This document shows, piece after piece, positions 2 through 5,371 of a stretch of 5,371 nucleotides of DNA. The translations under genes were made by a program, and so were the position numbers. How positions within the stretch are numbered: position 1 is the first letter of the stretch; each line of letters begins with the position of its first letter. Below the pieces are notes generated by a model that did no database searches, was not told the DNA's origin, and saw nothing but the letters and a program-made list of their open reading frames with translations. The DNA comes from a virus. Its lineage: Duplodnaviria; Heunggongvirae; Uroviricota; Caudoviricetes. The stretch lies in IMG/VR virus record IMGVR_UViG_2667527717_000007, positions 1 to 5,371 of that record, one strand, 5' to 3'.

Positions 2-322
2 TTTACCGCCTGGCAGACCGCTGGCGCACCGTCTAAAGAAAGCTGGGCATTCACTGCGTTAGGTGTTCTCGGCAACGATGACANNCCTGAAGCATGGTTT
101 TTCAGTGATGTCAGCGGGTTATCTGAGAGTCATGCAGTACATTTACCAGAAAGTAATGGTTCAGACTTTCTCCCGCTTAGCGATGAAGAGATCAGACTGC
201 TAACTGTCTTCAGGAAATTTCCTTCTGTAGAGAGTAAAAACATGCTGTTAGCGTTTGAGATGAGACTTCAGGAGATAAAAGAATACTATTCCAAATACGC
301 TAATCCCAATAAAAACCGATAG
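2..322 (+). CDS. 3' portion of a gene entering from upstream (106 sense codons, stop TAG 320-322); hypothetical protein, possibly the C-terminal part of a prophage regulator
   Basis: Frame 2 is open from the window edge to TAG at 320-322; the other + frames hit stops within about 60 nt. Codon usage looks E. coli-like. The tail ...LSDEEIRLLTVFRKFPSVESKNMLLAFEMRLQEIKEYY resembles C-terminal tails I associate with some XRE-family regulators, from memory only. NN at 84-85 gives one unknown residue. Confidence 0.5.
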   Translation, partial: FTAWQTAGAPSKESWAFTALGVLGNDDXPEAWFFSDVSGLSESHAVHLPESNGSDFLPLSDEEIRLLTVFRKFPSVESKNMLLAFEMRLQEIKEYYSKYANPNKNR

Positions 323-348
323 TCTCCTTCTTTCCTCCCCCAACAATC

Positions 349-375
349 ACAAGCCTGCTTGAAATGCAGGCTTGT
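349..375 (+). other. Stem-loop with 10-bp stem (acaagcctgc / gcaggcttgt) and 7-nt loop, 27 nt after the stop of the upstream gene; no U-tract
   Basis: Direct base pairing of 349-358 with 366-375. Shares the GCCTGC...GCAGGC stem with hairpins at 1721-1734 and 2087-2104. No T-run follows, so it is not a canonical intrinsic terminator. Confidence 0.5.
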
Positions 376-386
376 TACACCTCGCA

Positions 387-401
387 TAATAAAACACTTA
401 A
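387..401 (+). repeat. Direct repeat copy 1: TAATAAAACACTTAA (exact 15-mer, second copy at 666-680; degenerate copy TAAACACTTGTATTTAT at 441-457)
   Basis: Exact 15-nt identity between 387-401 and 666-680, extending with a 2-nt gap into TTCAT. Both lie in an AT-rich context. Confidence 0.7.
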
Positions 402-558
402 ATTTCATACAATTAAAAATTTTTAGTGATTTTCTCACTTTAAACACTTGTATTTATCAAATCCATTTTGTAGATTGATTGTACAAATCCTCTAGCAACA
501 CATGCGCGACAGGTAAACGTTCCGCCGACGGGCGTAAAACAAAGATGAGGACGACAGA

Positions 559-747
559 GTGGACAAGACTGAACTGAAACACATTATCGCCCTGCTCCTG
601 GAAGATGCAAAACGTCTTCAGCAGGTTGAACCAAATGCAGGCACTGAGGCCCGCATATGGTTGGCTAATAAAACACTTAATTCATTCAGAGAGTTAAGCG
701 GTTTTGCAAGAGGGTCAGGTATCTCTACCGAACACCAACTTTCTTAG
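559..747 (+). CDS. Small hypothetical protein (62 aa), GTG start
   Basis: ORF from the six-frame track. GAGG at 547-550 sits 8 nt upstream of GTG 559. Codon usage is reasonable. It has no recognisable motif, contains a copy of the 15-bp repeat, and its last 23 nt overlap the convergent ORF 725..913. Coding status is uncertain. Confidence 0.35.
   Translation: MDKTELKHIIALLLEDAKRLQQVEPNAGTEARIWLANKTLNSFRELSGFARGSGISTEHQLS
666..680 (+). repeat. Direct repeat copy 2: TAATAAAACACTTAA, lying inside putative ORF 559..747
   Basis: Exact 15-mer match to 387-401. Confidence 0.7.
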
Positions 748-913
748 CTAGCGCCTCCATAATAATAGAATGTCGTTCGCTAAGAATGCCGATTGCCGCC
801 CCGCAAAGTGCACACTGAACGAAGTGAATAATGTGACTGCAATTTTTCACTGAGGAATTGGTTTTTAACTCAAAAGAAGTTGATGGGCATTTTGGACAGG
901 TTGTTACAGCCAT
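725..913 (-). CDS. Small C4 zinc-ribbon protein (62 aa), hypothetical
   Basis: ATG at 913-911 is preceded on the - strand by GGAGGG with a 6-nt spacer (+ strand cctcc at 922-926). The protein MAVTTCPKCPS...CSHIIHFVQCALCG carries a CxxC...CxxC spacing typical of a zinc ribbon. Its 3' end overlaps ORF 559..747 convergently. Confidence 0.5.
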   Translation of the reverse strand: MAVTTCPKCPSTSFELKTNSSVKNCSHIIHFVQCALCGAAIGILSERHSIIMEALAKKVGVR

Positions 914-946
914 ATTTTACCCTCCACGGGGTCGATGTTGGTGGAG

Positions 947-969
947 TTCCCGACGGACGAGGTCGGGAA
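947..969. other. Inverted repeat ttcccgac-N7-gtcgggaa (8-bp arms) in the 5' leader of the minus-strand ORF
   Basis: 947-954 is the reverse complement of 962-969. It lies about 34 nt upstream of the ATG at 913 in minus-strand sense. Confidence 0.4.
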
Positions 970-998
970 TGTGCGCCGGACACAGGTATAAATCCGGC

Positions 999-1013
999 AT
1001 ACGAAATTCGTAT
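999..1013. promoter_or_regulatory. Perfect 15-bp palindrome ATACGAA-A-TTCGTAT; candidate operator for a dimeric DNA-binding protein
   Basis: Arms 999-1005 and 1007-1013 are exact reverse complements. It sits in the divergent gap between the minus-strand ORF start (913) and the + strand operon (1391). Confidence 0.35.
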
Positions 1014-1047
1014 CACATGCAGGATATGTATTTAAACACGAGCACAT

Positions 1048-1122
1048 AACCGAAAACGCACTACGCAGAACCTTCCTTGTCGGGTCTGTCGTTAAATTTA
1101 CTGCGATAGTGCGTTTCCGGTT
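1048..1122. repeat. Long imperfect inverted repeat: arms 1048-1068 (aaccgaaaacgcactacgcag) and 1101-1122 (ctgcgatagtgcgtttccggtt), separated by 32 bp
   Basis: The reverse complement of arm 2 is aaccggaaacgcactatcgcag, which aligns to arm 1 with one mismatch and one 1-nt gap. It could be an operator pair or a structured RNA; the sequence alone cannot distinguish them. Confidence 0.55.
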
Positions 1123-1159
1123 ATGAGTGAAAATCATAACAGTGCTGTGTGTAGTCTTT

Positions 1160-1206
1160 GACGGTATCCGTTAACAAAGTTTTCCTGGCTGATACCGTCC
1201 TTTTTC
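1160..1206 (+). terminator. Terminator-like element: 9-bp stem gacggtatc / gataccgtc with a 22-nt loop, followed by CTTTTTC
   Basis: 1160-1168 pairs with 1191-1199 and a T5 run follows at 1201-1205. The loop is larger than in typical intrinsic terminators. It lies about 185 nt upstream of ORF 1391..1681, so it could be a leader attenuator. Confidence 0.35.
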
Positions 1207-1390
1207 AGAATGAATTTTATAGTGTGGTGAATGCGGCTCAGCGCACGTGACACAGTTAAAAACATGTCAGTCCTTCATCTGTTGATGGGTGGGAATGTTC
1301 GTCGGCAGTAATGGTTAGCTGTTTACTGTCACCGGGAGGCACCCGGCACCACACTCCAAAATTCATTGTGTTACCAGAATGGAGACAACT

Positions 1391-1681
1391 ATGCCAGTTA
1401 CACCTGAAATAAAACAAAACTCAGACTGGATGCGGCGCAACAAATCTGAACAAACCGCCCCTGCCTGTAAGCCTGGTATTATTCAGAAAATATTAAGTAC
1501 GCTGAACCAGAAAGGTGACCCCACCCTTATTCCTTGCGCTTATTGTGGCAAAGCCATCAACAAAAGTGAAATCGTGGAGCATGAACTTATTTATATAAAC
1601 GGAAGTCAGCTCGCAAGAAAAACGAATCTATATTGCAGTAAACGATGTGCCGAATATGACCAGATGGCACATGAATCTTAA
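1391..1681 (+). CDS. Small zinc-ribbon protein (96 aa), hypothetical early-left operon gene
   Basis: GGAG at 1381-1384 sits 6 nt before ATG 1391, which I prefer to the track start at 1379 (no SD). The protein has CAYCGK...x28...CSKRC, a CxxC-N28-CxxxC pattern. Stop TAA 1679-1681 is followed immediately by TAG. Its position matches the small genes that precede recE in Rac-like prophages. Confidence 0.65.
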   Translation: MPVTPEIKQNSDWMRRNKSEQTAPACKPGIIQKILSTLNQKGDPTLIPCAYCGKAINKSEIVEHELIYINGSQLARKTNLYCSKRCAEYDQMAHES

Positions 1682-1720
1682 TAGCTGAAAGTTTAACACT
1701 GCATTAACCCTGAAACTATG

Positions 1721-1734
1721 CCTGCAATGGCAGG
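1721..1734 (+). other. Short hairpin CCTGC-aatg-GCAGG in the gap between the two small genes
   Basis: 5-bp stem with a 4-nt loop. Shares the stem sequence of the hairpins at 349-375 and 2087-2104. Confidence 0.4.
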
Positions 1735-1764
1735 ATATCACTCACCCTGAAAAGAGAATATAAA

Positions 1765-2097
1765 ATGAGAAAGACACCGAGCGAATCAGTAATTAATGAA
1801 CTCAACAAACGAGCAAAGGAAATTCTTGAACTGTGTGAGAAAAACGATATTCCGGTTGTTTTTTGTTACTCATTCGAATTAAGCCGGAATGAAAATGGAT
1901 ATTTAAACAACAAATCCATTACAGCTTATATCAATAAAGAGAAAGGAGCATGGGATTCAACAATAGCCGCAGCCAGCATGATCCTGCGGATGAAAGAGGT
2001 TCCTGAGATAGCTATCCATGCAATGGCTGAAATGGCTGCGATTTGTGACATCACACGGACTGCATCCGGTACTTCAGATGAAAAAAGCCTGCACTAA
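1765..2097 (+). CDS. Hypothetical protein (110 aa) immediately upstream of recE-like gene
   Basis: ATG 1765 with a weak purine-rich SD (aaagaga, 1751-1757). Stop TAA 2095-2097. Co-directional and closely spaced with its neighbours. It occupies the position of racC in Rac, but I do not claim homology. Confidence 0.6.
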   Translation: MRKTPSESVINELNKRAKEILELCEKNDIPVVFCYSFELSRNENGYLNNKSITAYINKEKGAWDSTIAAASMILRMKEVPEIAIHAMAEMAAICDITRTASGTSDEKSLH

Positions 2098-2116
2098 GGC
2101 AGGCATTTTCCCGGTT
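2087..2116 (+). terminator. Possible intrinsic terminator or processing hairpin: GCCTGC-actaag-GCAGGC followed by ATTTTCCCGGTTTTT
   Basis: 6-bp GC-rich stem (2087-2092 / 2099-2104). The stop codon of the upstream ORF lies in the loop. The T-rich tract 2106-2119 is interrupted by CCCGG. recE starts 118 nt downstream, so any termination is probably partial. Confidence 0.35.
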
Positions 2117-2233
2117 TTTACATCCCGGCGATGCTGAGGTGGGCGACCAAACCCACCGACAGAGACATGACCAATGAGCACCAGAGGTGATCACCGATCG
2201 CCTCATTCTAAACAGAAGTGAGGTTAAAAAACA

Positions 2234-5200
2234 ATGAGTGATAAGAAAGAAGATTTCGCGCTGTACTGCCCTGTTAAAAATGAAGAGGCCAGGAAACGAC
2301 TTGGAATAAAAGCAGGCTTTTTCTGGGCAACTGCAAAAAAATTATCTGTGGCTGTTTCCCGCTGTATTGCTGCTATGGACGATAAGGGGTATGACGAGGA
2401 TGACTTTAAAAAACCTGTTCGCGTCAATTACCCCGTCGTTAACGACCTGCCTCCTGAAGGCGTGTTTGATACTGAATTCTGCAACCGTTACGAAAAAGGC
2501 GGTCAGGGTGGTATCACAATGGTACTTATCCCCGGCGCTGTTCCCGCCGATCCAATGCACGGCGAAGTCGGCAGGGATATTACTGGCAGCGGCAACGCAG
2601 ACGCAGACGCAGACGCAGGCACAGACGCAGATAATGCTACGGACAATACCGAAAGTACGCTCCTCCCCGCTTACGCTTATAACGTCAACGGCGAACTGAT
2701 GTCGGAAGTGGAAAAGGAAATGTCGCAGCCTGTTTCAGGACTAAGTCTGCCACTTCGTTTCCTGGCGCAATTTAATAACGACTGTCCACAACATCAGGTC
2801 ACACCAGAGCGTTTACGGGAGTTAAACCTTACAGAGCAGGATCCCGACAGTCGTACCGGAACTATTTTACTCGCCATCCAGAACAGAAAGGAACAGCTCG
2901 AAAAACTGGACACAAAAAACCTGCATCCTTTGGCGACGTACATTGAAAAAGTATTTCCCTGCGGAAAACGACCACAACTCAATGATGTCATTAATTTTAT
3001 CGATGCCGTACTTAATACAGACTATGTCGATCGCGGACTGCTCGTTAAGGAATGGTGCGAAGGTCGTCGAGCCGCGTGCGTAGAGCATGTAACAGCACCA
3101 GAAACCAGGCGTGATAATACTGTGTCAGCGCAGACGGAAACGAAGACTACTGTCACTGAACGTCCGCGTCGTAGCGAAAAAACAACGCACCGGACGATTA
3201 ATTATGAAATTGGCTGTGGCTTATATGACGGCGAGCTGGATCTTCATAACCTGAGGGAACCGCTGGATTTTGCGAAACGCATTATGGCGAAAGACCGGGA
3301 AGACTGGAAAGTATGGTCAGACACAATCAACTGCATCCCTGGCATCCTGAATTATGACCGCCAGACCATTATCGAGATGGTACGAAAAGCCCCCACCCCG
3401 ACTTATCACAGTGCTGCACTGCGCCGCGAGTGGTGTGATTCTTATCTGCGAGCCTGGGGACGGCTCGATCCCGACTGGAGCCAGAGCGCCGCTGTCAAAA
3501 CAGCAGAGTCACATGAAGATGTCTGTGCTGATATCAGGAAGGCCGGAAAGCGCCTGCGTGAAATTGAATCAGGAGTTGGGATCAATGAAGAAAAACAGAC
3601 GACACAGGGAGAACTGGCAGATGAACCGTCAGCGCCTGAATCAGTGGAACCGGCTTCAGCTGAACATCAGCAGAATACGCAGCCGCTGGATGCTGAGGCA
3701 TCTGTAAACACCACTAAAACGGAATTCGATGTATTTGCTCTAATGCAGAACTCATCTGTTTATGGCAGCAAAAACACACAGGAGACGACCAGCAATGTGC
3801 AGGTTCAGGACGCTGAAAAGGATGAAAAACAGGCTGGTACTGAAGTTCAGTCAGGCGAAAGCAGTCTGGGAACTGGTGAAGAGTCAGATACCAGACAGCA
3901 AGCCGATGTAAACCAGAATACGGATTCTGTCGCCCAAAATAGCGATTCTGTAAACCAAACTGAACCAGTTTTGGCACAAACCGAGCCAGAAGTGCAATCT
4001 GACGAACCGGCTGTTGTTTACCCCGCTTACTTCGAACCAGGCCGCTATGAGGGTCTGCCGAACGAGGTTTATCACGCAGCCAACGGTATCAGCTCGACAA
4101 TGGTAAAAGATGCGCGGGTGAGCCTGATGTACTTCAATGCGCGCCACGTAGAGAAAACCATTATCAAAGAACGCTCTCCTGTACTGGATATCGGTAACCT
4201 GGTGCATGCACTGGCGTTGCAGCCAGATCAACTCGATGAAGAATTCAGCATTGAACCCGTAATTCCGGAAGGTGCATTTACCACCACGGCAACGATCCGC
4301 GCGTTTATTGATGAGCACAACGCCAGCCTGACAGCGATGCTGTCAGCCGACGACATCAAAGCACTGTTAGAAGAGTACAACGCCACCCTTCCTGCTCAGG
4401 TTCAGTTAGGTGGTTCCGTGGAGGAAACTGGCCAGAGCTATATGTCGCTGCCAGAAGAGTTCCAGCGTCTCGAAGCGGACAAGAAGCAGACCGCAGCGGC
4501 AATGAAAGCCTGCATCAAGGAATACAACACCACACTGCCTGCACAAGTGAAAATCAGCGGTAGCCGTGATGCGTTACTCGAGCAGTTAGCAATCATCAAT
4601 CCTGACCTGGTGGCGCAGGAAGCGCAGAAGCCCGCGCAGTTGAAAGTGTCCGGCACCAAAGCGGATCTGATTCAGGCCGTGAAGTCTGTTAATCCTGATG
4701 CCATCTTCGCCGACGAACTGCTGGATGCGTGGCGCGAAAATACGCAAGGGAAAGTGCTGGTCACCCGCCAGCAACTGAGCACTGCACTGAGCATTCAGAA
4801 AGCCCTGCTCGAGCACCCTACAGCGGGCAAGCTACTGACACACCCGAGCCGCGCCGTTGAGGTGAGCTACTTCGGTTTTGACGACGAAACCGGTCTGGAA
4901 GTCCGCGTTCGTCCCGACCTTGAGATCGATCTTGACGGGGTGCGCATCGGCGCCGACCTGAAAACCATCAGCATGTGGAACATTAAACAGGAAGGTCTGC
5001 GCGCCAAACTGCACCGCGAAATCATCGACCGTGACTACCACCTGAGTGCTGCCATGTATTGCGAGACCGCAGCGCTTGACCAGTTCTTCTGGATTTTCGT
5101 CAACAAAGACGAGAACTACCACTGGATCGCCATCATCGAGGCATCCGCCGAACTTCTGGAACTGGGCATGCTGGAGTACCGCAAGGCAATGCGCGCCATC

Positions 5201-5296
5201 GCTACCGGCTTTGACACTGGCGAGTGGCCAGCGCCGATCACCTCCGGTAACTCCGATGAAATAGCCGACTACACCGACGAACTGAACGATTTCGAC
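2234..5296 (+). CDS. recE: Exodeoxyribonuclease VIII (RecE family; PD-(D/E)XK / DUF3799-type nuclease domain at C-terminus); 3' end truncated by an artefactual junction
   Basis: Single long ORF with GAGG at 2220-2223 and ATG 2234. Stretches I recognise from E. coli Rac RecE: FPVVNDLP-like NYPVVNDLPPEG, LPLRFLAQ, DYVDRGLLVKEW, NTQPLDAEASVN. The C-terminal domain carries nuclease motifs: YHAANGISSTMVKD, LDIGNLVHALAL, RVRPDLEID, GADLKT (D-x-K), DYHLSAAMY. An acidic, Q/T-rich low-complexity linker spans roughly aa 470-590. No stop codon is reached before the sequence turns into rRNA at 5297. Confidence 0.85.
2597..2630 (+). repeat. In-frame imperfect hexanucleotide tandem repeat (GCAGAC)n, about 5.7 units, encoding ADADADAGTDAD within recE
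   Basis: gcagac gcagac gcagac gcaggc acagac gcag, read directly. The unit length of 6 keeps the reading frame under slippage. Confidence 0.8.
4295..4710 (+). repeat. Degenerate internal repeats inside the recE nuclease-domain region (three copies of an [IM][RK]A-x-[IL]-x-E-[HY]-N-x-[ST]-L motif, and duplicated LPAQV-x-[IL]-SGS / KVSGTKADLIQAV modules)
   Basis: DNA-level similarity between 4373-4418 and 4520-4564 (about 67% identity, 147-bp period). Protein motifs: IRAFIDEHNASL, IKALLEEYNATL, MKACIKEYNTTL, and ISGSRDALLEQLAIINPD vs VSGTKADLIQAVKSVNPD. Confidence 0.5.
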
Positions 5297-5371
5297 NCNT
5301 GCCATCNGANGNGCCCAGATGGGATTAGCTAGTAGGTGGGGTAACGGCTCACCTAGGCGACGATCCCTAGC
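5297..5371 (+). rRNA. Internal fragment of 16S rRNA gene (Enterobacteriaceae-type, roughly E. coli positions 215-290); most likely a chimeric or assembly artefact, not an intact rRNA gene
   Basis: tgccatcNgaNgNgcccagatgggattagctagtaggtggggtaacggctcacctaggcgacgatccctagc matches the conserved 16S segment TGCCATCGGATGTGCCCAGATGGGATTAGCTAGTAGGTGGGGTAACGGCTCACCTAGGCGACGATCCCTAGC as I recall it. It begins abruptly inside the recE reading frame, with N calls clustered at 5297-5312. Confidence 0.8.

Follow-up and report, generated by a model that had tools for sequence, protein, structure and literature searches.

A GCCTGC/GCAGGC stem shared by three hairpins in a Rac/Gifsy-type prophage is best read as coincidence between separate features

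Does a short stem that recurs at three gene boundaries of one prophage mark a single functional element, or have unrelated hairpins arrived at the same letters? This question is raised by the window studied here, a stretch of 5,371 nucleotides corresponding to the immunity and early-left region of a lambdoid prophage of the Rac/Gifsy type. Three hairpins with a common short stem are present exactly where a first-pass annotation had placed them: HP1, ACAAGCCTGC-ttgaaat-GCAGGCTTGT, at 349-375; HP2, CCTGC-aatg-GCAGG, at 1721-1734; and HP3, GCCTGC-actaag-GCAGGC, at 2087-2104, with 1.4 and 0.4 kb between the sites. That annotation had proposed one shared element or binding site at the three boundaries, a proposal that we do not uphold, because the three hairpins have different histories and the orthologues of HP1 and HP2 lack the stem. 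We consider it likely that HP1 is the terminator of the repressor gene, HP2 a leader hairpin and HP3 the terminator of an IsrB-type RNA, independent pieces of punctuation whose shared stem is coincidental.

The window starts with a chimeric contig end (bases 1-85, with an E. coli DUF4132 gene matched at 1-83), and 3' of 5296 it is N-ridden and then turns into 16S rRNA. The stretch from 86 to 5296 is 99.9% identical to locus L112. Megablast matched neither the window to anything in a phage collection nor the immunity region to any complete E. coli genome. Genes and RNAs follow each other in the order repressor, PL-like promoter, small genes, DicF-like and STnc100-like RNAs, ydaE, lygB-like gene and recE. 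The repressor gene is of the RacR/DicA HTH type and is represented by its 3' part (86..322, plus strand), 100% identical to P0020, the full repressor protein of 144 aa with PF01381. Between the repressor and the early-left genes lies an AT-rich region (376..558, plus strand) that we read as an OL/PL-like promoter/operator; its homologues show a TTGACA promoter-like sequence. An operator-like heptamer, ACTTGTA, occurs in it once, at 446-452, just 3' of HP1, and the other three of the four copies in 12.4 kb are located in the divergent cro/repressor promoter region. From this distribution ACTTGTA is the likely operator motif of the repressor, and it is different from the hairpin stem. Further downstream on the plus strand are the ydaE-like gene 5' of HP2 (1379..1681; NF041288 YdaE, E = 1.4e-23), a lygB-like gene at the RacC position (1765..2097; LygB family, Salmonella) and recE, encoding exodeoxyribonuclease VIII (2234..5296). 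The history of each hairpin was followed in about 130 related loci, among which eight near-identical prophage loci all carry HP1, HP2 and HP3. Rfam assigned no family to any of the three when the window and a Gifsy-type locus were scanned, both in full and over the intergenic region alone, and the sole matches at the hairpin sites were weak ones to terminators of other families.

HP1 (349..375, plus strand) is a 10-bp hairpin with a 7-nt loop. It starts 27 nt 3' of the repressor stop codon, so that here the position claimed for all three hairpins, after or between genes, is correct. It folds with -17.8 kcal/mol (z = -5.4 against shuffles), and its U-tract is weak: UUGUUACA follows the 6-bp GC core, only four of the eight nucleotides 3' of this core are T (TTGTTACA), and the terminator scan did not list the site. 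A search of viral contigs with the exact HP1 sequence returned no match. A hairpin with a T-tract follows the stop codon of about 40 homologous repressor genes at a distance of 15-30 nt, the tract being TTTTTTT, TTTTGACTTTT or TTTGTTGTTTT. Their stems differ and covary (GCCCAGTC/GACTGGGC, GCCTGGCC/GGCCGGGC and GCCCAGC/GCTGGGC, compared with GCCTGC/GCAGGC in the window), and all of them keep an AGCC...GGCTT frame. A U.G wobble in two loci (L072, L073) is valid on the plus strand only. On these comparisons HP1 is read as a plus-strand intrinsic terminator of the repressor gene, which in a lysogen would stop repressor transcripts from entering the repressed early-left operon. In phage lambda the cI-rex transcript ends at a terminator ahead of PL, and this terminator and its RacR-DicA equivalents are arranged as HP1 is: they follow the repressor gene immediately, on its own strand, and precede an operator-bearing early-left promoter. 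However, the orthologues have canonical T-tracts, while that of HP1 is poor, and HP1 may terminate weakly or need help.

HP3 lies at the end of the lygB-like gene (2081..2109 with both tracts, read on the minus strand; stem 2087-2092/2099-2104), and here the position after or between genes needs a correction: the left arm consists of the last three codons of the open reading frame 1765-2097 and the stop codon TAA (2095-2097) is in the loop. The conserved C-terminal codons of the lygB-like gene, E-K-S-L-H plus stop, thus make up the A-tract, left arm and loop of the hairpin. The A6 run at 2081-2086 is a U6 run on the minus strand, where the stem GCCTGCCTTAGTGCAGGC is followed by TTTTTT and passes the terminator scan, as it does in the Gifsy-type locus L017; in this orientation HP3 is the only terminator-like site in the lygB-like/recE intergenic region. 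A T-rich tract after the third hairpin, as the first-pass annotation had described it, does exist on the plus strand (ATTTTCCCGGTTTTT, with ATTTT at 2105-2109), but the minus strand has the better T-run (T6), and the plus orientation of the window (ATTTTCCC) was not listed by the scan; the corresponding sequence in L110 is TTTTTCCC. The hairpin folds with z = -2.7 relative to shuffles. About 63 loci conserve the stem and the T-run of the minus strand, which, with a run of T5-7, are invariant in 19/19 sequence variants. Hairpin and T-run are also kept where HP3 is wholly intergenic (L100 and the E. coli phage ON470614). Its seventh pair covaries (A-T, G-C) and the core of 6 bp never varies. On its sequence and conservation, HP3 is accordingly read as the site at which a minus-strand RNA would end by Rho-independent termination; for HP1 and HP3 alike, termination itself is what we infer from these patterns.

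The candidate RNA that ends at HP3 (2081..2174, minus strand, about 88-94 nt) has a published counterpart. isrB-1 and isrB-2 lie between sbcA, a recE homologue, and its upstream gene, on the opposite strand, with lengths of 88 and 94 nt; an orphan Rho-independent terminator led to their discovery, and they extend over the 3' end of their neighbour (Padalon-Brauch 2008, PMC2330248). A role in the maintenance of lysogeny is suspected for IsrB (PMC5391140). In strain 4/74 the Gifsy-2 prophage expresses IsrB-1, an RNA described as ProQ-associated. The RNA predicted in the window is likewise placed between a recE homologue and the upstream gene, on the strand opposite to both, and its terminator overlaps the 3' end of the neighbour with a U-run complementary to Glu-Lys codons. 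We therefore assign the HP3 RNA to the IsrB family by published neighbours, strand, length and terminator rather than by direct alignment with an IsrB sequence. If transcribed in this prophage, the small RNA would start in the recE leader, be antisense to it and end within the last lygB-like codons; its 5' end is set from the published length alone. Distances between isrK and HP3 are 7.4-8.6 kb in related loci, similar but not identical to the 8.08 kb of LT2, a value calculated from the 3'-end coordinates of isrK and isrB-2 (table in PMC2330248). Rfam searches covering the lygB-like/recE region gave no IsrB match, and no paper with the hairpin sequence turned up in a full-text literature search.

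A second hairpin in the same interval argues for the same strand. It is formed by the recE leader or the IsrB-like RNA (2138..2157, minus strand; GGTGGG-cgaccaaa-CCCACC as read on the plus strand), and its loop is conserved. In three independent variants a G.U wobble on the minus strand would be an A-C mismatch if the plus strand were folded. A compensatory change is present in L035, and L100 has another stem with the same loop. The wobble asymmetry favours a structure selected on the minus strand. The region of the minus-strand RNA is moreover 86% identical to the Gifsy-type LygB-recE intergenic sequence, which is widespread in Salmonella, with flanking genes at about 68%. Promoter scans of the window and of the Gifsy-type L017 found no convincing sigma-70 promoter from which the minus-strand RNA could start. 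A conserved TTGTTT-17-TAGAAT/TAAAAT sequence overlapping the recE start fails the scan and predicts an RNA of about 120 nt, not 88 or 94 nt, and its conservation may be due only to the recE ribosome-binding site.

The likeness to IsrB-1 and IsrB-2 (of Gifsy-2 and Gifsy-1) thus comprises the gap next to the recE homologue, the opposite strand, the length of about 90 nt and the terminator over the 3' end of the upstream gene (PMC2330248). There are also differences. The window copy is found in a different prophage with another immunity region and its lygB-like gene is only 50% identical, its terminator loop is CUUAGU instead of AUUUAAU, its second hairpin has a perfect stem, the plus-strand T-tract gives the terminator a bidirectional look, and the window RNA is predicted from sequence.

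This plus-strand tract is the basis for the strongest alternative, namely that HP3 acts mainly on the plus strand, as a lygB-like/recE attenuator or a 3'-end stabiliser of the early-left mRNA, and that the minus-strand T-run is a by-product of Glu-Lys codons. HP3 does lie within the early-left transcript, the A-run does code for conserved E-K residues, and in the lineage of the window the stem is followed by the T-rich tract, with TTTTT directly after it in L110. Outside this lineage, however, no plus-strand T-tract is found, neither in Gifsy-type loci nor in L100 or the E. coli Rac relatives (GCGCTTCCCC, AATTCCCC, TATGAACA), while the minus-strand T-run is universal and kept where the A-run is non-coding. 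The wobble asymmetry of the adjacent hairpin and the published orientation of IsrB, opposite in strand to recE (PMC2330248), also speak against it, and as the main role of HP3 we regard a plus-strand function as rather unlikely. The two readings are compatible and both orientations may terminate in the window's lineage. Here the added plus-strand T-tract would make HP3 a bidirectional terminator, which probably also attenuates plus-strand read-through into recE. The resulting AAAAAA-GCCTGC-loop-GCAGGC-(A)TTTT arrangement resembles that of bidirectional intrinsic terminators; in contrast to these, HP3 is not flanked by convergent genes, one direction serves a small antisense RNA while the other is internal to an operon, and most relatives of HP3 have a T-run in one direction only.

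HP2 (1719..1735, plus strand), located 30 nt 5' of the lygB-like ATG, is of a different nature. Its fold of -8 kcal/mol is no better than that of shuffles (z = -0.6), and hence folding in silico supports stable structures for HP1 and HP3 and only a weak one for HP2. The suggestion that the hairpins are terminators is a fair one for HP1 and HP3 and not for HP2: there is no T-run on its plus strand and the scan of the window did not list it as a Rho-independent terminator. A minus-strand terminator at this site was flagged in L017, but its T-run is not conserved in other lineages, and we rejected it. In all 62 of 62 relatives outside the window's lineage the arm is CCAGC and not CCTGC, and the site folds as UGCCA-GNRA-UGGCA in a register shifted by 2 nt, compared with CCUGC-AAUG-GCAGG in the window's lineage; an E. 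coli Rac phage likewise has UGCCA-GAAA-UGGCA. A single A-to-T change in this lineage would have shifted the register and created the CCTGC/GCAGG stem. A mosaic junction lies immediately 5' of the hairpin. HP2 would accordingly be a small hairpin in a plus-strand leader, located where the lygB/racC module has its 5' edge, with UGCCA-GNRA-UGGCA as its conserved form, and any function of it is a matter of inference.

How surprising is it, then, that three features share a stem? For the exact motif the claim that chance is an unlikely cause is correct: CCTGC-N3-9-GCAGG occurs three times where 0.06 are expected, and 0/200 shuffles of the window contain at least three, although this expected value overstates the case, since the relevant question is whether any stem recurs. 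For any stem the claim does not hold in real DNA. Some GC-rich 5-bp stem is present at least three times in 7/1000 shuffles of the window (0.7%), in 11/110 related prophage loci (a redundant set that includes the window) and in 10/92 E. coli K-12 windows of 5.4 kb. In natural sequence such a recurrence is thus no rarity, with about one in ten E. coli windows of this size having one. The motif itself has a low background, with only two independent sites in related prophage DNA totalling about 250 kb. The same stem core is also found 3' of dnaJ in E. coli K-12, and a weak Rfam match to the STnc370 terminator reveals a CCUGC/GCAGG stem in the terminator of an unrelated sRNA. The common stem of the three hairpins is best read as coincidence, which becomes likelier because the A-tract-GCC...GGC-T-tract build is common in enterobacterial terminators and because this 5-mer serves as a hairpin stem at an above-average rate.

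Opposed to this is the view that the three form one functional class, in which the GCCTGC/GCAGGC stem is recognised by a phage antiterminator or some other protein that binds RNA, by a nuclease that processes it, or by a DNA-binding dimer that uses the palindrome. The excess over expectation with the low background, the retention of all three hairpins in the eight near-identical prophages, the fact that the motif-creating change in HP2 falls in the lineage that has this HP1, and an HP3 core that is invariant even in distant relatives are in line with it. Because this core never varies, its sequence-specific recognition is conceivable. Nevertheless, HP1 orthologues use other stems, HP2 orthologues lack the motif, some stem often recurs in real genomes, and the strand-specific signals of HP1 and HP3 are on opposite strands. 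The flanks of the three sites are unrelated (20-40% identity, i.e. random), and a repeat finder run on the window detected no direct repeat joining them. Each concrete candidate was rejected. Among them, boxB/nut hairpins are closest, as short, identical stems repeated in lambdoid early operons; however, copies of boxB have the same loop, in sequence and in length, and come together with a boxA, whereas the window loops differ (TTGAAAT, AATG and ACTAAG; 7, 4 and 6 nt), no boxA-like sequence with up to one mismatch is found, HP1 is upstream of the early-left promoter region and another copy is on the other strand. The inconstant half-site spacing of 7, 4 and 6 bp argues against the palindromic operator of a dimeric DNA-binding protein, and the lack of shared sequence beyond the stem against a REP-like dispersed repeat family. 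A classical RNase III substrate needs a stem longer than the 5-10 bp seen here. A single class is thus very unlikely.

Equally improbable in our estimation is that HP1 derives from the IsrB terminator, carried there when prophage modules recombined, and is hence homologous to HP3. HP1 (AAGCCTGC-TTGAAAT-GCAGGC) and the Gifsy-type HP3 (AAGCCTGC-ATTAAAT-GCAGGC) are identical at 19/21 positions with equal loop length, and all three hairpins are at mosaic boundaries. However, the similarity does not extend past the hairpin and the functional orientations are opposite, while the orthologous repressor terminators share the frame and flanks of HP1, with a C-rich run before it, an AGCCTG start and GGCTTTGT after it. 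Because frame and flanks match these terminators, descent in place suffices for HP1. Least probable of all is that the stem was selected three times for a lineage-specific factor that reads its sequence, with the A-to-T change in HP2 being adaptive and not neutral, although such a factor, if real, would tie together repressor termination, processing of the lygB leader and IsrB/recE control.

A short GC-rich stem repeated within one window is thus weak evidence for a shared element. Reading the three hairpins as separate features directs attention to HP3, where the hairpin and minus-strand T-run recur in several Rac/Gifsy-type lineages, as does the second hairpin with its conserved loop, except in the E. 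coli Rac phage. IsrB-type antisense RNAs next to recE would therefore not be confined to Gifsy-1 and Gifsy-2, and the set of variants would supply an alignment from which a covariance model could be built and mutations chosen.

The window is the immunity and early-left region of a Rac/Gifsy-type lambdoid prophage. Positions 86-5296 are 99.9% identical to a prophage segment (L112) that is present in several enterobacterial assemblies. Both window ends are assembly chimeras with Ns at the joints (1-85 and 5297-5371): positions 1-83 match an E. coli chromosomal DUF4132 gene with 100% identity, and positions 5321-5371 are bacterial 16S rRNA. A related locus with the same immunity region, L070, likewise breaks at an N into unrelated sequence. 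The gene order starts with a repressor gene of the RacR/DicA type (HTH, 144 aa, P0020), followed by an AT-rich gap, a 62-aa ORF, a DicF-like RNA (1146-1200, plus strand, 24 bits) and, directly 3' of it, an STnc100-like RNA (1199-1403, plus strand, 39.5 bits), both scoring under the Rfam gathering score. Next is a ydaE-like gene, the ORF start of which is overlapped by the STnc100 match, then a lygB-like gene (110 aa) in the racC position between the ydaE-like gene and recE, which is the last gene. The pair of DicF-like and STnc100-like RNAs is also found in the Gifsy-type locus L017. Within recE, a run of short GCAGAC repeats (2587-2625) encodes the low-complexity stretch DADADAGTDAD.

Three hairpins in this region, HP1 (349-375), HP2 (1721-1734) and HP3 (2087-2104), carry the stem GCCTGC/GCAGGC (CCTGC/GCAGG in HP2), and the first-pass annotation took this reuse at gene boundaries as a sign of a shared RNA element or protein-binding site. 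All three positions are confirmed, and the reading of the sequence was accurate, but its cause was over-interpreted. For this specific motif, three occurrences stand against 0.06 expected, and none of 200 shuffles reached three. However, the reader was free to notice any stem, and hence the fair test is the recurrence of any stem. A GC-rich 5-bp stem with three or more copies was present in 7 of 1000 dinucleotide-shuffled versions of the window. Such stems were also present in 11 of the 110 related prophage loci (a redundant set including the window) and, when the first 250 kb of E. coli K-12 were divided into 92 half-overlapping segments of 5.4 kb, in 10 of these. The motif itself (CCTGC-N3-9-GCAGG) is found seven times in that E. 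coli sample, about three times the 5-mer average (three sites in genes, three in tRNA anticodon arms and one hairpin directly after dnaJ). It is enriched outside coding sequence in E. coli, as any hairpin would be, and is not special. The coincidence is further eased because such terminators typically start with A-tract-GCC and end with GGC-T-tract, so that only about three more pairs have to coincide. Unrelated terminators can also have a CCUGC/GCAGG stem, as in a weak STnc370 match and the dnaJ hairpin.

A real link among the hairpins through their stem retains a small probability. The motif is rare in related prophage DNA (two independent background sites in about 250 kb), and HP1 and the Gifsy-type HP3 are alike at 19 of 21 positions. 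Against such a link, HP1 and HP3 are under selection on opposite strands (plus and minus, respectively), the motif is missing from HP1 and HP2 orthologues, no two sites agree in loop length or loop sequence, and the flanks share nothing. The motif was rejected as an operator, the likely operators being a different motif, ACTTGTA; a search at the hairpins found no boxA-like sequence, and since classical RNase III substrates need longer stems than 5-10 bp, these stems are too short for RNase III sites. The hairpins are best read as three ordinary features: a repressor-gene terminator, a small leader hairpin altered by one substitution and the terminator of an IsrB-family RNA. Compared with shuffled sequence, HP1 (z = -5.4) and HP3 (z = -2.7) fold more stably, whereas HP2 does not (z = -0.6).

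HP1 starts 27 nt past the repressor stop codon. The loci collected through lygB do not span this region, and comparison loci were therefore gathered through the repressor protein. In about 40 homologous repressor genes a strong hairpin always lies 15-30 nt past the stop, with a T-tract after nearly all of them. The closest orthologues (59-70% protein identity) share a common frame (C-rich run, A-rich bases, AGCC...GGCTT, TTTGT), within which the inner stem varies by paired substitutions (GCCCAGTC/GACTGGGC, GCCTGGCC/GGCCGGGC, GCCCAGC/GCTGGGC, and GCCTGC/GCAGGC in HP1 itself). One orthologous stem contains a U.G pair, which the opposite strand would render as a C-A mismatch; being valid only on the plus strand, it indicates that the structure is selected in plus-strand RNA. 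The U-tract of HP1 (TTGTTACA) is the poorest of the orthologue set and falls under the threshold of the intrinsic-terminator scan. From these comparisons we conclude that HP1 is the predicted intrinsic terminator of the repressor gene, of uncertain strength. It would shield the repressed early-left promoter from read-through in lysogens. The heptamer ACTTGTA occurs four times in 12.4 kb, once 3' of HP1 (446-452) and three times (L112 5917, 5938 and 5983) on the far side of the repressor gene, in the divergent promoter region that this gene shares with the cro-like gene. This placement looks like an OR/OL arrangement, and the copies are probably the operators of the repressor. A minus-strand 62-aa ORF (725-913) with CxxC pairs and weak matches to Lar and ECs_2282 zinc fingers lies antisense in the early-left operon and overlaps the end of the ORF at 559-747; its transcript would head for HP1, and it is called as a gene in the related locus L111.

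At HP2, 62 lygB-family loci outside the lineage of the window have the left arm CCAGC rather than CCTGC, which creates an A-A mismatch in the pairing originally proposed. These sequences pair in a register shifted by 2 nt, as UGCCA-GCAA-UGGCA, and the corresponding site 5' of racC in an E. coli Rac phage reads UGCCA-GAAA-UGGCA. Thus, the conserved object is a plus-strand 5-bp stem with a GNRA tetraloop, and CCTGC/GCAGG arose by a single A-to-T substitution found only in the prophage lineage of the window. The hairpin lies at the 5' boundary of the lygB/racC module, with a mosaic junction immediately upstream, and may be a 5' leader structure.

The left arm of HP3 encodes Ser-Leu-His of the lygB-like gene, with the stop codon in the loop, and no part of the LygB-like tail is better conserved than its C-terminal E-K-S-L-H. 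Of 67 sequences with the conserved recE-leader anchor (window included), about 63 keep an intact stem, and the loop differs (ATTAAAT vs ACTAAG). Three Salmonella prophage loci, L019, L030 and L031, have lost the right arm to an 11-nt deletion (about 3825-3840), indicating that the hairpin is dispensable in at least some prophages. On the plus strand, the sequence 3' of the stem is T-rich only in the lineage of the window (ATTTTCCC; TTTTTCCC in L110; elsewhere GCGCTTCCCC or similar). On the minus strand T5-T7 follows the stem in 19 of 19 sequence variants, and this orientation is the sole terminator-like site that the scan finds in the intergenic region. In the related locus L100 and the E. coli Rac phage, HP3 is preceded by another gene (RacC-like, 91 aa) and lies entirely between genes, yet both keep the GCCTGC/GCAGGC core and the minus-side T-run, with A-T or G-C as seventh pair. 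The A-run is thus kept where it is non-coding and is not merely a coding by-product. In the lineage of the window HP3 appears, from its flanks, to be bidirectional. Length changes of the A-run 5' of HP3 lead to frameshifted LygB variants that read through into the intergenic region (P0010, P0011, P0015 and P0018).

A second leader hairpin (2138-2157) keeps its loop while its stem varies. In three independent variants its odd pair would be G.U in minus-strand RNA but A-C in plus-strand RNA; one variant is compensated. The window and the Gifsy type share 86% identity over roughly 100 nt of minus-strand sequence, compared with about 68% in the surrounding genes. The lygB/racC-recE intergenic region (window 2105-2233; L100 5328-5461; L136 1030-1107) is a conserved structured element of 100-140 nt with at least three hairpins, covarying stems and the conserved loop CGACCARAC; the E. 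coli Rac phage has a shortened version and the E. coli locus L001 none.

We take sbcA in LT2 to be the recE homologue. [quoted passage not shown] 2008, PMC2330248). Read on the minus strand, HP3 matches this geometry exactly. The distance from isrK to HP3 is 7.4-8.6 kb in four related loci, consistent with the 8.08 kb calculated from the LT2 coordinates of isrK and the isrB-2 3' end, though not exact, as expected of mosaic prophages. Rfam searches gave no match to an IsrB model. HP3 is probably the IsrB terminator, matched by its published description. Several lygB-family prophages (L144, L145, L146, L149 and L153; at 16.2-18.8 kb) end beside the SraC/RyeA-SdsR locus, and about 5-6 kb upstream of lygB these prophages have an antitoxin RNA resembling sok. 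L146 additionally shows matches to isrI, isrK and C4-type antisense RNAs. Later studies report expression of IsrB-1 from Gifsy-2 in strain 4/74 (PMC7067206) and describe IsrB as associated with ProQ and suspected of helping to maintain lysogeny (PMC5391140). The predicted minus-strand RNA ending at HP3 would be a divergent member of the known IsrB antisense RNA family. Besides a calibration for recurring-stem calls, the analysis yields a collection of IsrB-like variants spanning several lineages of Rac/Gifsy-type prophages.
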